Below the pieces are notes generated by a model that ran no database searches, was not told where the DNA came from, and saw nothing but the letters and a program-made list of their open reading frames with translations. The translations under genes were made by a program, and so were the position numbers. From NCBI GenBank assembly GCA_032124015.1, contig JAQBEH010000022.1, positions 10,585 to 74,584 on the forward strand: a stretch of DNA of 64,000 nt. Reading direction: 5' to 3'. Source of the stretch: Acidobacteriota bacterium. GTDB taxonomy: Bacteria > Acidobacteriota > Polarisedimenticolia > Polarisedimenticolales > DASRJG01. Below are positions 12,316 to 37,346 of the stretch, one piece after another. Each line of letters opens with the position of its first letter. Position 1 is the first letter of the stretch.

Positions 12316-12328
12316 TATAATCCCCGCA
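12316..12328 (+). promoter_or_regulatory. Perfect -10 box positioned for a leaderless transcript of the ClpX-like gene
   Basis: TATAAT at 12316..12321, then 6 nt, then the A of ATG 12328. No Shine-Dalgarno sequence lies between them. The -35 is weak. Confidence 0.35.
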
Positions 12329-13416
12329 TGAAACCCATCGAGATCAACGACTTCCTCCAGGCCGATGTGATCGGGCAGCAGGAAACCCTAAAATTCGTGG
12401 CGGTCGCCATCTTCAAGCACATCCAGGGGGAGCGGTATGGCAACCTCTTGATGATCGGGAACTCCGGCACCGGCAAGACGACGATCATGCGTTCCATGGA
12501 ACGCTTGTACGAAAAGCACGAGGAGTTCCACGCGAATCGCGTCGTCTGCATCATGAACGCCAATCAGTTCGCGAGCGAAGAGGGAATCGTCGACCCGAAT
12601 CGCCTCCTCGTTCGTCTGGAAGAGCGGGCGCGAGAGATCCTCGGCGAGGATGCCACCGCCGAGCAGATCGGCGACTACATAGAGCGCGCGACCGTCTGCA
12701 TCGACGAGATCGACAAGATCTCGGCGATCGTCGGCGGCAAACCGTACGTCACCGGCATCAACATCCAGCAGGGGCTGCTGACGTTGATCGAGGGCGAGCG
12801 GATTCTCTACCCGGTGACGATCTACAAGAACAAGCAGCTCGAAAAAGCCGCGATCCACATCGATACTGGAAAGATGCTGTTCCTGTGCGCGGGAGCGTTC
12901 GAATCACTCTACGATCAGGTGTACCGGCGGGTGACGTCGCCGACGTCGCGCGTCAAGCTTCCCGCCGAGACCGTTTACGAAAACGGCGAAGTCCAGATCC
13001 GCGAGTACTTCACGCTGCGCCACTGGTTCAAACAAGAAGACCTGTTCGACTACGGCATGCAGCCACAGTTCCTCTCGCGCTTCGACAATTCGATCATTCT
13101 CGAAGACCTGAATGCCGGAACGTTGTCGCGCATTTTCACCGAGCCGAAGGATTCGGTCCTGCGCGCGTCCCAGAATTTTTTCAAGAACTACAATATCGAC
13201 ATCGACGTGACCGACGGCGCCGTGCGCAAGATCGCGGACGAGGCGTCGAAGTCGAGCCGTATCGGGGCGCGTGCGCTGAAGGCCGTCTGGGGAAAGATCA
13301 TCAAGCCGTACGAATTCGACCCGTTCGGACAGACGGACGTCAAAAAAGAAGGCGACCGCCACCGCCTGGTCGTCGACGAAGCGGTCGTGCTACGTGCGCT
13401 GAAGCCGCCGCTTTAG
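12328..13416 (+). CDS. ClpX-like AAA+ ATPase lacking zinc-binding domain and IGF loop
   Basis: Walker A GNSGTGKT, Walker B VCIDEIDK, ClpX-like blocks QQGLLTLIEG, MLFLCAGAF and IGARALK. No N-terminal Cys cluster is present. Spot-counted lines are 48-57% GC against about 67% in the neighbouring gene. Confidence 0.8.
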   Translation: MKPIEINDFLQADVIGQQETLKFVAVAIFKHIQGERYGNLLMIGNSGTGKTTIMRSMERLYEKHEEFHANRVVCIMNANQFASEEGIVDPNRLLVRLEERAREILGEDATAEQIGDYIERATVCIDEIDKISAIVGGKPYVTGINIQQGLLTLIEGERILYPVTIYKNKQLEKAAIHIDTGKMLFLCAGAFESLYDQVYRRVTSPTSRVKLPAETVYENGEVQIREYFTLRHWFKQEDLFDYGMQPQFLSRFDNSIILEDLNAGTLSRIFTEPKDSVLRASQNFFKNYNIDIDVTDGAVRKIADEASKSSRIGARALKAVWGKIIKPYEFDPFGQTDVKKEGDRHRLVVDEAVVLRALKPPL

Positions 13417-13445
13417 GGAGACCTGACCCCTTTTCTTCTCTAGAA
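13414..13445. repeat. Degenerate REP-like element
   Basis: TAGGGAGACCTGACCCCTTTTCTTCTCTAGAA shares its CCCCT..TTCTCTAGAA tail with the copy at 25533. Its TAG is the stop of the ClpX-like gene. Confidence 0.4.
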
Positions 13446-13452
13446 TGTCGCC

Positions 13453-15819
13453 ATGAGAGATTTCGAGAAGCTGGGCGTTTTCTACCTCGGTAGGCTCGCG
13501 GGACCCAACGCTCCGAAAGAGCCGGAACCGGTCCTCTACGACGCGAAGGATCTCACGACGCATGGCGTGATCGTCGGGATGACGGGGAGCGGCAAGACAG
13601 GCCTCGGCATCGGCCTTATCGAAGAGGCCGCCATCGACGGCATCCCCACGATCGCCATTGACCCCAAAGGCGACCTCGGCAACCTGCTGCTCACCTTCCC
13701 CGACCTGGCGGCCGCCGACTTCGCGCCGTGGGTCGAACAAGGCGTCTCGGCCGATGAGACCGCGGCGGCGTGGACCAAGGGGCTCGCCGCGTGGGGCGAG
13801 GGGCCGGAGCGCATCAAGAAGTTCCGCGACGCCGTCGACCTGGCGATCTACACACCGGGAAGCAGTGCCGGCCGATCGATCTCGATCCTCCGTTCCCTCG
13901 CGGCGCCGCCTCCCGCGGTGATGGACGACGAGGACGCGCGCCGCGAGAAGATCAACGGTACGGTGTCCGGGCTGCTCGCCCTCCTCGCCATCGAGGCGGA
14001 CCCGCTCCGGAGCCGCGAGCACATTTTGATGGCGAAGCTCGTGGAGGCCGCCTGGACGACGGGGAAGGACCTGGATCTTGCGGGCCTGATCCGGGATATC
14101 CAGAAGCCGCCGTTCGATCGCGTCGGCGTCGTGGACGTCGAATCGTTCTACCCCGCGAAGGATCGAGGCGCGCTGGCGATGTCCCTCAACAACCTCCTCG
14201 CCTCGCCGGGGTTTGAGGCGTGGCTGACGGGCGAGCCCCTCGACATTCAGCGCCTCTTGTGGACCGCCGAGGGGAAGCCGCGCGTGTCGATCCTTTCGAT
14301 CGCGCATCTTTCGGACGCGGAGCGGATGTTCTTCGTGACGCTCCTTCTCAACGAACTCGTGGCCTGGATGCGCGGGCAGACGGGTACGACCAGTTTGCGC
14401 GCGCTGTTTTACATGGACGAAGTGTTTGGGTTTTTCCCTCCCGTCGCCAACCCGCCCGCGAAAACACCGATGCTGACGCTGCTCAAGCAGGCGCGAGCGT
14501 ACGGTGTGGGGTGCGTGCTTGCGACCCAGAACCCGGTCGATCTCGACTACAAGGGTCTCTCAAACGCGGGGACGTGGTTCCTCGGGCGACTGCAGACCGA
14601 ACGCGACAAAGCGCGCGTCATCGAGGGGCTTGAAGGCGCGTCGGCCGCGGCGGGAAGGAGCTTCGACAAGCAGGCGATGGAGGCGACGCTCGCCGGACTC
14701 GGGAAGCGGGTCTTCCTGATGAACAACGTCCACGAGGATGCGCCGGTCCTGTTCGAGACCCGCTTCACGTTGTCGTTCCTTCGCGGGCCGCTCACCAAAA
14801 AGCAGATCCAGGTCCTGATGGCGCCGCAGAAAAGCGCGGCCGCGGCTCAGCCCGCCGCGACACCGACTGTTGCGGCCTCGGGCGGGCGTCCGGCGGTGCC
14901 CGCCGGCGTGAATGAAACGTTCCTCCCGTGGCGCGGAGCGCAGAAACCAGGGGAGCGCCTCGTCTACCGGTCCGGCCTCCTCGGCACGGCGAACGTGCAC
15001 TTCGTCGATGCGAAGGCGCAGGTCGACGCGTGGGTCGAAGTGGCCCTGATCGCGCCCTTCGCGGAAGGCGGTGCCTGGGACGCCGCGGAAGATCTCGGCG
15101 AGAAACCTGAGCTCGAAAACGACCCCGATGCCAGGGCTGCGTTCGACTCCCTTCCCGCCGTCGCGTCCCAGCCGAAAAGCTACGCCGCGTCGGAGAAGGA
15201 GCTCGCCGGGTACCTCTACCGCACGAGAACGCTCGACCTCCACAGTTGTCCCTCGCTGAAGCTTGTGGCCAAGCTCGGCGAATCCGAGGGGGACTTCAAG
15301 ATCCGCGTGCAGCAGGCCGCGCGGGAGAAGCGGGACGCGGCAGTGGAAACGCTCAGAGCAAAATACGCGGGCAAAGCGGACACCCTGCGCAACCAGGAAC
15401 GGCGCGCCGCCGAGCGTGTCGCACGCGAACAGGTCCAGGCTTCCCAGCAGACGATGCAAACCGCGATCAGCGTCGGGGCCACCCTGCTTGGCGCATTGTT
15501 CGGACGCAAGGCGGTCTCCGTCGGATCGATCGGCCGCGCGACGACGGCCGCGCGGGGCGTCGGCCGCACGATGAAGGAACGCCAGGACCTCGACGGCGCG
15601 GAGCAAAGCGTCGAAGTGGTACGAAGGAAGATCGCGGACCTCGAGGCCGAGCTGCAGTCCGAAATCGCCGAACTGAGCAGCGCCCATGAACTCGAGAACT
15701 TCGCCATCCAGTCCGCCTCGCTGAAGCCGAGAAAATCGGACATCGCCGTGTCCGGGGTCTCGCTCGCTTGGATTCCCCACTGGGTGGGCGACGGCGGGAG
15801 CGCCCGCCCGGCACGGTGA
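13453..15819 (+). CDS. HerA/FtsK-superfamily P-loop NTPase, YjgR (DUF853)-like, with long C-terminal extension
   Basis: Walker [19 protein letters not shown], Walker [11 protein letters not shown] and [15 protein letters not shown] parallel E. coli YjgR blocks as I recall them. The C-terminal 300 aa or so is a coiled-coil plus a Gly-rich amphipathic segment. Confidence 0.75.
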
Positions 15820-15837: not shown

Positions 15838-16674
15838 ATGGTGTACGACATCCGCACGCGATCCGGCGCCGTGATGCCGAACCTGGGGTTGGGTACCTGG
15901 CGCATGGGCGAAAACGAATCCGCCCGCCGAGAAGAGGTCGCCGCCTTGCAGCTAGGGCTCGACCTGGGATTGGATCTGATCGATACCGCGGAGATGTACG
16001 CCGACGGCGGCGCGGAAACCGTCGTCGCCGACGCTATCGCGGGGCGGCGAGACGGCGTCTTTCTCGTCTCGAAGGTCCTCCCTCACAACGCCAGCCGCAT
16101 AGGCACGCTTTCCGCCTGCGAGCGCAGCTTAAAGCGATTGCGCGTCGAACGTATCGATCTCTACCTGTTGCACTGGCCGGGGGAGCACCCGCTCGAAGAA
16201 ACGCTGGGCGCCTTCACGCGACTCGCGGAGCAGGGGAAAATCGCCCACTACGGCCTGTCGAATTTCGACCTCGACGAGCTTGCACGCGCGGAAGGGCTCC
16301 CGGGAGGCCTGCGCGTCGGCGCGAATCAGGTCCTCTACAACCTCGAACGGCGCGGGGTCGAGCGCAAGCTGATTCCGTGGTGTGCGTCCCGGAACATCGC
16401 GATCATGGCGTACTCGCCCCTCGAGCAGGGGAGGCTCAGCCCTCACGAAGCCCTGCGGCGCGTGGGGGCGCGGCACGACGCGACCCCCGCGCAGGTGGCG
16501 CTTGCCTGGACGCTGCGTCACGACAACGTCGTTGCGATCCCGAAGGCGGCTCGCCTCGCGCACGTTCGCCACAACGCGAAGGCCGCGGACATCGTTCTCA
16601 CCGAGGAAGACCTGGCGGACATCGATCACGCGTTCCCGCCTCCGCGACGCGACGTTCCCCTGGAGACCTTGTGA
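15838..16674 (+). CDS. Aldo/keto reductase
   Basis: 278-aa ORF with [15 protein letters not shown] and LYLLHWP motifs. Confidence 0.88.
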
Positions 16675-16685
16675 GTGCCAGGACC

Positions 16686-17312
16686 ATGAGCGCCGTCCTG
16701 ACGAAGCTCACCGCCCGCTACACGGTCGATCGGTTCGTCACCGCGAACGGTCCCGACCCGTTCCGCATCCTCATCAGTTGCATCCTCTCGCTCCGCACGA
16801 AAGACGAGGTCACCTACCCGGCAACCGAACGCCTGTTCGCAAAAGCGAGCGATCCGGCGGGGATGCTGAAGCTGACGCCCACCGCGATCGAAAAGGCGAT
16901 CTACCCGGCCGGCTTCTACCGGACGAAGGCGAAGCAGATTCGCGCGATCTCCGGGATCTTGCTGTCGCGTCATGACGGGACAGTGCCCGACACGATCGAG
17001 GACCTGCTCCTCCTTCCCGGCGTCGGGCGCAAGACGGCCAACCTCACGGTCACCCTCGGCTTCGGAAAACCCGGCATCTGTGTCGACACGCACGTCCACC
17101 GCATCGCGAACCGCCTCGGCTGGGTCGCGACCAACACCCCCGACGACACCGAGGCCGCGTTGCGACGCAGCCTCCCGAAACGTTGGTGGATCCCGATCAA
17201 CGAGACGTTGGTGCGCCACGGACAGCAGGTGTGCAAGCCGATCTCACCGTTGTGCTCGGCCTGTCCGGTCGCCCACGCGTGCCCGAAGATCGGTGTCGCG
17301 CGCCGTCGCTGA
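16686..17312 (+). CDS. nth: Endonuclease III
   Basis: HhH-GPD motif [14 protein letters not shown], catalytic VDTHV, and a C-terminal Fe-S cluster motif [20 protein letters not shown] 16671, overlapping the AKR stop, is an alternative start. Confidence 0.88.
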
Positions 17313-36758: not shown

Positions 36759-37346
36759 CTACGACCGACGCGGCCGTTCGAGCGTCACCGTGAAGAGGTC
36801 CAACTCGCCGCCGCAGGACACGTCGAAGTGGACGGCCGCGGCGCACCCGCGCCGGGCGATCTCCTGGGCTCCGAGCTTCTCGTCGTAGATCGTGTGCAGG
36901 GCGCCCAGCGCGTACGGCCCGCCGGATCCGATCGCGTCGAACCGCGTGAAGCGGGTGACCGACATCTGGCCCGTGACGTGGAAGATCCCGGCCGTGTTGA
37001 CGATCAGAAACGACGCGTCGAGGTCGGCGAACGGGGACTTGTCGTCGTCCATCGGCTGATCGTTGACGAACGAGTAGTCCTTCCGCATCCGCTTCCAGAA
37101 CCGGTTGAAGAACACGAAGATCTCCCGTTCGTTCCGCAGCCGCGGGGCCGGCCCTTTGGCGAGGAAATCCACCAGGATGTTCTCGTAGAGCCCCCACCCG
37201 GTCTGCGCGACGTACGACGCGCCGACCTTCATGATCTTCGACGAGTTGTGGTCGCCGCGCAGCACGCGGCGGTCGCCGAAGTTTTCTTGCGTGTCGGCGG
37301 CGATCGCGATGGTTCTACCCTTCTGAACGGCAACGGCGACGGACAT
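36759..37346 (-). CDS. HslV-like T1 (proteasome-type Ntn) peptidase with Ser at the nucleophile position
   Basis: MSVAVAVQKGRTIAIAADTQ parallels HslV TTIVSVRRNGHVVIAGDGQ. AIGSGGPYA is identical to the HslV block as I recall it. An SD GAGG lies 6 nt upstream of the ATG. Confidence 0.7.
   Translation of the reverse strand: MSVAVAVQKGRTIAIAADTQENFGDRRVLRGDHNSSKIMKVGASYVAQTGWGLYENILVDFLAKGPAPRLRNEREIFVFFNRFWKRMRKDYSFVNDQPMDDDKSPFADLDASFLIVNTAGIFHVTGQMSVTRFTRFDAIGSGGPYALGALHTIYDEKLGAQEIARRGCAAAVHFDVSCGGELDLFTVTLERPRRS

Follow-up and report, generated by a model that had tools for sequence, protein, structure and literature searches.

A mostly acidobacterial family of ClpX-derived AAA+ ATPases that lacks the zinc domain and the GYVG, RKH and IGF motifs of ClpX

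Introduction

ClpX is among the best-understood AAA+ unfoldases, with a zinc domain, an RKH loop, the tyrosine of a GYVG loop and an IGF loop that select, grip and deliver its substrates. Mutants in the pore-1 tyrosine lose unfolding and translocation, and the IGF loops are required for the binding of ClpX to ClpP. Here we describe a gene for a ClpX-like AAA+ ATPase of 362 amino acids (aa), together with the family to which it belongs, which we call XL. The gene lies in a stretch of 64,000 nucleotides (nt), hereafter the window, from an Acidobacteriota bacterium of the order Polarisedimenticolales (assembly GCA_032124015.1, contig JAQBEH010000022.1, positions 10,585 to 74,584). A first-pass annotation, made from the letters of the window, had read it as a stripped-down paralogue of ClpX.

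Among related ATPases, HslU (TIGR00390) is likewise akin to ClpX and without zinc domain and IGF loops, but the XL protein has neither the I-domain insertion nor the GYVG motif, falls into a separate clade and elsewhere coexists with hslVU. AAA+ rings with a non-aromatic pore 1, such as p97/Cdc48 D1 and the torsins, are kept as assembly, regulatory or remodelling rings; they belong to other clades and have no specific sequence relationship to the XL protein, and the likeness is one of analogy only. Other ClpX-like proteins without a zinc-binding domain (P0219, P0224, P0228, P0253, P0254 and P0260; 342-396 aa) also begin at the AAA+ module, but they keep GY[VI]G and [ILM]GF, both of which the XL family has lost, and because these motifs are retained they are plausibly still coupled to ClpP.

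Our literature search found a single "stripped" ClpX paralogue that has been studied by experiment, ClpX3 of Myxococcus xanthus (MXAN_2743), which is isolated from clpP, has neither zinc domain nor RKH, and is dispensable yet needed at raised temperature, its deletion impairing growth at 36 °C (PMC11423568). It shares 43.5% identity with E. coli ClpX (PMC11423568), compared with ~26% for the protein of the window, and this identity places it within the ordinary ClpX radiation; going by its published description, it is unlikely to belong to the same family. The literature search found no paper on the XL family.

Results

The gene encodes a ClpX-derived AAA+ ATPase. A phmmer search of the PDB aligned residues 3-354 of the protein with residues 6-342 of an E. 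coli ClpX construct without the zinc-binding domain (E = 1.9e-25), bearing out the block-by-block alignment with the ClpX AAA+ module that had been proposed at first pass, and the motifs quoted in its favour are all present: GNSGTGKT (residues 44-51), VCIDEIDK (123-130), QQGLLTLIEG (147-156), MLFLCAGAF (183-191) and GARALK (313-318). An AlphaFold2 model was predicted from an alignment of 29 sequences (predicted local distance difference test score 91.5, predicted template modelling score 0.87) and compared with the PDB using Foldseek; the top 50 hits were all ClpX chains, with TM-scores of 0.72-0.76 and 25-27% identity. Fold, Walker A and B motifs, arginine finger and sensor 2 are those of a ClpX-type AAA+ module, and the catalytic residues (Table 1) are unchanged throughout an alignment of 27 family members and the ClpX of the same genome.

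Set against canonical ClpX (TIGR00382/NF003745; PDB 6wrf, 8e91 and 3hws), the protein has in common the fold of the large and small AAA+ domains reflected in these TM-scores, the Walker A and B motifs, the QQ(A/G)LL(K/T)LIEG box, the arginine finger and the GAR of sensor 2, as well as a beta-hairpin where ClpX has RKH and loops where it has pore 1, pore 2 and IGF. It differs in its identity of 25-33%, in insertions of 8 and 12 residues in the large domain, in a deletion of 11 residues before Walker A, in a longer and structured element at the IGF position, in a shorter pore-2 loop and in the location of its gene away from clpP. Profile searches likewise set it apart: Pfam returned generic AAA domains only (AAA_2, 7e-12), and the scores against the ClpX equivalogs NF003745 of NCBIfam (149.6 bits, cut-off 359) and TIGR00382 (118.4 bits, cut-off 370.75) fall below threshold, as does that against HslU (TIGR00390; 69.8 bits, cut-off 362.45), where only the C-terminal part of the protein was matched. 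Among NCBIfam families the protein stands closest to ClpX, with HslU far behind. Five of the six testable features that define ClpX are lacking.

The elements that distinguish ClpX from other AAA+ modules are lost or rebuilt in this protein. There is no C4 zinc domain in the open reading frame (ORF), nor a CxxC...CxxC pattern in any frame within 3 kb, and the alignment shows the protein to begin at the counterpart of the linker that follows this domain in ClpX. Since a stop codon lies 40 codons upstream of the ATG with no start codon between them, an N-terminal extension is impossible, and the absence of the domain reported at first pass stands. The equivalent of pore 1 is an acidic segment, modelled as the loop that joins strand 73-77 to helix 91-105. 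Depending on the register, Tyr153 of ClpX aligns to G86 or I87; the corresponding position in close relatives is I, V, M, A or S, and none of the 18 sequences of the near subgroup carries F, W or Y in pore 1. A pairing of F81 with the ClpX tyrosine in the phmmer alignment was dismissed as a mis-register, since the family alignment sets F81 opposite the Leu of "TTL" in ClpX. The first-pass reading of a replaced tyrosine (GYVG to GIVD) was therefore correct, the alignment check having found no aromatic residue in the loop.

The pore-2 equivalent is strongly conserved in the near subgroup, with a mean column identity of 89% and an invariant Tyr139 (G-K/R-P-Y-V-T-G). Across 48 family members an aromatic residue is found in pore 1 only in 14, in pore 2 only in 19, in both in one and in neither in 14, a distribution uneven enough to indicate that no single gripping residue is needed family-wide. 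The hairpin at the RKH position has a tip that varies across the family and is the least conserved region of the protein (51% mean column identity). A motif scan of the protein and of all family representatives found no [ILMV]-G-[FL] tripeptide, so that the first-pass statement that there is no IGF loop holds for the tripeptide; it does not hold for the loop as such, since a longer, conserved loop-hairpin (residues 203-228) occupies its position, and "IGF loop rebuilt" is the better wording. This element is ~9 residues longer than in ClpX and has a mean column identity of 83% in the near subgroup, compared with 79% for the whole protein; Leu211 at the tip of its loop is hydrophobic (L/F/M/I/V) in all 48 members and is flanked by basic residues. 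In a motif scan of the library, every family representative was without the zinc-binding domain, G[YFW][VI]G, [ILMV]G[FL] and RKH, and these losses define the family.

The gene is a paralogue, as had been claimed, because the genome (assembly 97% complete) has its canonical clpX in a tig-clpP-clpX-lon operon on another contig (C104). The product of that gene scores 635 bits and has CxxC...CxxC, GYVG, RKH and MGF. One ClpP was found in the genome, plus a weak match in a 568-aa ORF, and a second ClpP dedicated to the XL protein was discarded as a candidate on these grounds. At none of ~45 loci is the XL gene adjacent to clpP.

Homologues at E <= 1e-5 number ~2000, nearly all of 362-366 aa, and are labelled "AAA family ATPase" or automatically labelled ClpX. 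Clustering at 50% gave 59 representatives better than 1e-30, followed by a drop to ~110 bits, where canonical ClpX starts. The named sources are Acidobacteriota (Thermoanaerobaculia, Holophagales, Polarisedimenticolaceae and Terriglobia) and one record labelled Thermodesulfobacteriota. Among 301 genomes sampled across Acidobacteriota the family is present in 32; all ten sampled genomes of the window's order have it, while the 18 sampled from the rest of the class do not. In some genomes there are two copies, each of a different clade. In a maximum-likelihood tree that covered ClpX and HslU, the family is monophyletic (SH-like approximate likelihood ratio test 100) on a stem of 3.0 substitutions per site and joins within or beside ClpX, apart from the HslU clade, two of whose eight rows are mis-extracted ORFs (branch length 10) and are to be disregarded. 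The traits of the family, namely a length of 360-390 aa, a ClpX-like module, the absence of zinc-binding domain, GYVG, RKH and IGF, and monophyly, are all seen in the window's protein, as are its sequence blocks (a NAN motif before pore 1, EDLF-YGM-PQF-RFD and EFDP). Ratios of nonsynonymous to synonymous substitution (dN/dS) against close orthologues are 0.04-0.07, and the family is under strong purifying selection; divergence is ~2 times that of the genome's own ClpX over the same genome pairs (for G091, 68% and 86% identity, respectively). XL is an uncharacterised, mostly acidobacterial family derived from ClpX.

Two members of unusual form or origin were seen. A 51%-identical member (P0122/P0271; L112:8001-10115) carries a xylose-isomerase-like triosephosphate isomerase (TIM) barrel (AP_endonuc_2, 4.8e-29) as a C-terminal fusion and has a short Cys-rich N-terminal extension; the aldo-keto reductase (AKR) that is syntenic with the XL gene in the window's order is a TIM barrel too. 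Genome G258, of another taxonomic family, holds two copies (L071 and L093), 67% and 40% identical to the window's protein; the first is as close as the ClpX of that genome (67%), though the family evolves ~2 times faster, and this copy may have been acquired horizontally.

At 58.6%, the GC content of the XL gene is the lowest among genes of more than 150 aa in the window (mean 65.5%, standard deviation 2.5%), that of the HerA-like gene downstream being 66.8%. The low value noted at first pass is thus real, but it is no sign of foreign origin: GC at third codon positions (GC3) stands at 83.2% where the window averages 84.1%; the shortfall lies in codon positions 1 and 2 (34% at position 2) and reflects a protein in which I, E, K, N, F and Y are abundant. 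Horizontal transfer of the window's gene, as an explanation of its low GC, was ruled out by this normal GC3.

Immediately upstream is a -10 box, GCTATAAT, which recurs in the orthologues L005-L010, L026, L012 and L013 at 6-9 nt before the start codon, with TAnAAT at equal distance in the distant clades L086, L088, L093, L095 and L096. The box is kept while the remaining intergenic DNA diverges. A consensus promoter scan at the gene found no full -35/-10 pair. A conserved box so close to the start codon points to a promoter of its own, and the gene probably has its own leaderless or near-leaderless transcription unit, which suggests that leaderless mRNAs occur in these Acidobacteriota.

The gene for a HerA/YjgR-like NTPase begins 36 nt after the XL stop codon, as described at first pass, and the spacer (13414..13452; 36 nt) holds a short GGG...CCC hairpin followed by TTTTCTTC. 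Neighbours were surveyed by tblastn of those in the window on 21 related loci and by gene calls on ~40 loci, for which a codon-log-odds caller trained on called genes was used. Adjacency of the HerA-like gene is kept in orthologues of at least 78% identity, except in L008/L099, where a 92%-identical orthologue has the AKR directly downstream and the HerA-like gene is missing. In L098 three genes intervene, and in L012 and L013 it is set off by 1.3-1.9 kb. In relatives of 71% identity or less, no HerA-like gene lies within 7 kb of the XL gene. The conserved pairing that had been suggested is therefore confined to close relatives, and reflects local synteny and no conserved functional partner.

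More generally, no gene partner conserved across loci was found among ~45 loci surveyed, and the partner ideas of the first-pass annotation do not survive the variation of neighbours among lineages. Flanking genes change between lineages and frequently have housekeeping roles (ThrRS, CarD, RibF, LepA, signal peptidase, PGI and FtsY); the other downstream neighbours include a ~200-aa polytopic membrane protein, an alpha/beta hydrolase, an HExxH peptidase, FtsY (in one taxonomic family) and unrelated genes. Further downstream, about half of the loci of the near subgroup have AKR and nth. These two genes (15838..17312 in the window) remain together across the order in nine loci despite a varying intervening gene, which may be the HerA-like gene, a membrane protein or a methyltransferase. 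The ~200-aa membrane protein is encoded 5-8 nt downstream of the XL gene in seven loci (L028:8107-8682, L029:8169-8780, L069, L070, L072, L073 and L098) and belongs to an unannotated family with the motifs GKFLxxGPLxAG and IGDGVGxGVE and no Pfam match. In 38 searched genomes all six of its matches adjoin an XL gene and none is in a genome without the family. Since the window's genus and most genomes with an XL gene do not have it, it was rejected as a universal partner and is a lineage-specific lead only.

The protein called "orphan HslV-like" at first pass is a homologue of the BPH proteasome, without a Pfam match at E up to 0.1, and its gene lies 23 kb from that of XL. The link proposed between the two fails on distribution: BPH occurs in four of the 301 genomes and XL in 32, with three shared, so that 29 of the 32 family-bearing genomes are without BPH, while one BPH genome is without the family and in G275, which belongs to the same genus as the window's genome, the ATPase is present but BPH is not. 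On this mismatch BPH was rejected as partner. Neither hslU nor hslV was found in the window's genome (G000) or in G161 and G275 of the same genus; hslU is present in the sister genus (G001 and G139) and in 56 of 61 sampled Acidobacteriota. BPH, present in two of the three genomes of the window's genus, coexists with hslVU in G091 and G099 and is not a strict replacement for it. The idea that XL replaces HslU was also dropped, the family coexisting with hslVU in most family-bearing genomes checked.

Table 1. Features of the XL gene and of two further genes in the window (residue numbers refer to the 362-aa protein).
Feature	Position	Strand	Basis or remark
TATAAT -10 box (GCTATAAT)	12316..12321	+	6 nt upstream of ATG; sequence read and orthologue comparison
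Coding sequence, 362-aa ClpX-like AAA+ ATPase (XL family)	12328..13416	+	ORF list, homology, AlphaFold2 model
Walker A, GNSGTGKT (44-51)	12457..12480	+	G44, G47, G49, K50 and T51 invariant in 29 sequences
Pore-1 loop equivalent, ASEEGIVDP (82-90)	12571..12597	+	acidic, no aromatic; alignment and model
Walker B, VCIDEIDK (123-130)	12694..12717	+	D126, E127, D129 and K130 invariant
Pore-2 loop equivalent, SAIVGGKPYVTG (132-143)	12721..12756	+	4 residues shorter than in ClpX; alignment
Beta-hairpin at RKH-loop position (158-178, tip YKNKQ)	12799..12861	+	no RKH motif
Rebuilt IGF-loop equivalent (203-228)	12934..13011	+	loop TSPTSRVKLP, then beta-hairpin AETVYE-NG-EVQIRE
Arginine finger R251 (in PQFLSRFD)	13078..13080	+	equivalent of ClpX R307; invariant
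Sensor-2 R315 (in GARALK)	13270..13272	+	G313, A314 and R315 invariant
788-aa HerA/YjgR-like P-loop NTPase	13453..15819	+	Pfam HerA_C 6.4e-10, DUF87 7.5e-6; context only
195-aa BPH proteasome homologue	36759..37346	-	PDB 5ovu, E = 1.3e-27; 5ovs, 1e-23

Discussion

We consider that the XL protein is, on balance, probably a ClpP-independent ring ATPase that remodels a client rather than feeding a protease. The invariance of the arginine finger, which acts in trans, argues for an ATP-hydrolysing ring, and the loss of both the pore-1 tyrosine and the IGF tripeptide makes remodelling independent of ClpP the most economical interpretation. The protein would assemble as a hexamer and hydrolyse ATP, and a ring of this kind, without an N-terminal adaptor or substrate domain, RKH loops for tag recognition, a gripping tyrosine or the IGF motif, would be expected to act without ClpP; its action would then be of a remodelling or chaperone type instead of processive threading. 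Candidate contacts for a client or partner are two conserved surface regions: the loop-hairpin that replaces the IGF loop, and pore 2 with its Tyr139. That the protein should not partner ClpP, and may not translocate substrates in the usual way, had been proposed at first pass, and the loss of the zinc-binding domain, the pore-1 tyrosine, RKH and the IGF tripeptide supports this to the extent that canonical ClpP docking and canonical substrate gripping both appear unlikely.

Some of our observations weigh against this interpretation. A loop with a conserved hydrophobic tip is still found at the ClpP-docking position, and docking on ClpP or another ring is thus possible. In other family clades pore 1 still has F or Y (MEFRP, GYG) and, taken with Tyr139 in the near subgroup, this means that some polypeptide threading could persist. 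Furthermore, the sequence data yielded neither client nor partner, which leaves "remodelling ATPase" a generic description.

The most direct challenge is that the protein might still be a ClpP-coupled unfoldase, its rebuilt loop (R-V-K-L-P, with Leu211) docking in the clefts of ClpP in place of IGF, and the aliphatic residues I87/V88 of pore 1 together with Tyr139 of pore 2 providing the grip; if so, ClpP would gain a second, differently targeted ATPase. The retention, in every member, of a loop in the place of IGF whose hydrophobic residue has basic flanks, the invariance of Tyr139 in the near subgroup and the possibility that the single ClpP of the genome is shared are consistent with such coupling. 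We nevertheless regard it as rather improbable, since the central Gly of [ILMV]-G-[FL] is missing in every member, the loop runs into a structured hairpin without counterpart in canonical ClpX, the position equivalent to the tyrosine varies among close relatives, and clpP adjoins the gene at none of the loci surveyed. We rate a membrane-associated role, in quality control or biogenesis, as unlikely too, if a little less so. Here the rebuilt loop would dock on the ~200-aa membrane protein or, in the window's genome, on an SPFH scaffold, which would fit with the tight spacing and exclusive association of the ~200-aa protein with the XL gene and with a run of membrane-linked neighbours (SPFH in the window and close relatives, FtsY in seven loci, PspA/PspB, PgpA, signal peptidase and LepA). 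However, the ~200-aa protein is missing from the window's genus and most family-bearing genomes, SPFH adjacency is restricted to close relatives, no hydrophobic or amphipathic membrane segment was seen in the ATPase, and a membrane theme may be coincidence among ~45 loci. A combination of these ideas with ClpP-independent remodelling can be imagined, in which XL would be a hitherto undescribed, non-proteolytic and possibly membrane-docked ClpX-type machine, its IGF loop turned into a loop-hairpin for another partner, possibly the ~200-aa membrane protein, and its aromatic residue moved from pore 1 to pore 2 (Tyr139) in the near subgroup; we put this forward as speculation, with a modest chance of being right.

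The remaining explanations are weaker still. HerA-type ATPases often act in defence systems, and a module for conflict or defence made up of the two ATPases, XL and the HerA-like NTPase, would be in keeping with the 36-nt spacing on the same strand, its persistence in orthologues of at least 78% identity and weak PADLOC HerA matches for the neighbour. It is nonetheless very unlikely given that the HerA-like gene is lost or displaced in several close relatives and absent at 71% identity or less, that the two genes have independent phyletic patterns, that the ATPase has its own promoter box and that the flanking genes AKR, Nth and pyrophosphatase are of the housekeeping kind; the PADLOC matches of the ATPase itself are marginal (DolB 6.5e-6, N-terminal 60 aa only), and membership of a defence system was rejected because library matches were marginal only. 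Even less can be said for XL as the ATPase partner of BPH, taking the place of HslU in a genus without hslVU. We know of no regulator for BPH, and the homology to 5ovu is clear, but the two genes are 23 kb apart, their distributions over the sampled genomes disagree, even within the window's genus, and most family-bearing genomes checked keep hslVU, all of which makes this partnership highly improbable. Finally, the lowest GC among the larger genes of the window and the loss of hallmark motifs might suggest a decaying or recently transferred, non-functional copy of ClpX; with strong purifying selection, invariant catalytic residues, ~2000 homologues of near-constant length, a GC3 equal to that of the genome and synteny with AKR and nth across the order, the chance of this is negligible.

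On a practical level, one source automatically names XL proteins "ATP-dependent Clp protease ATP-binding subunit ClpX", and this label misleads. A motor under strong selection without any of the four elements by which ClpX handles its substrates amounts to a natural experiment on a ClpX ring without threading into ClpP. The family is found throughout at least one order of Acidobacteriota, a phylum with very little experimental biology, and identifying a client of the XL family would extend Clp/Hsp100 function by a new branch.

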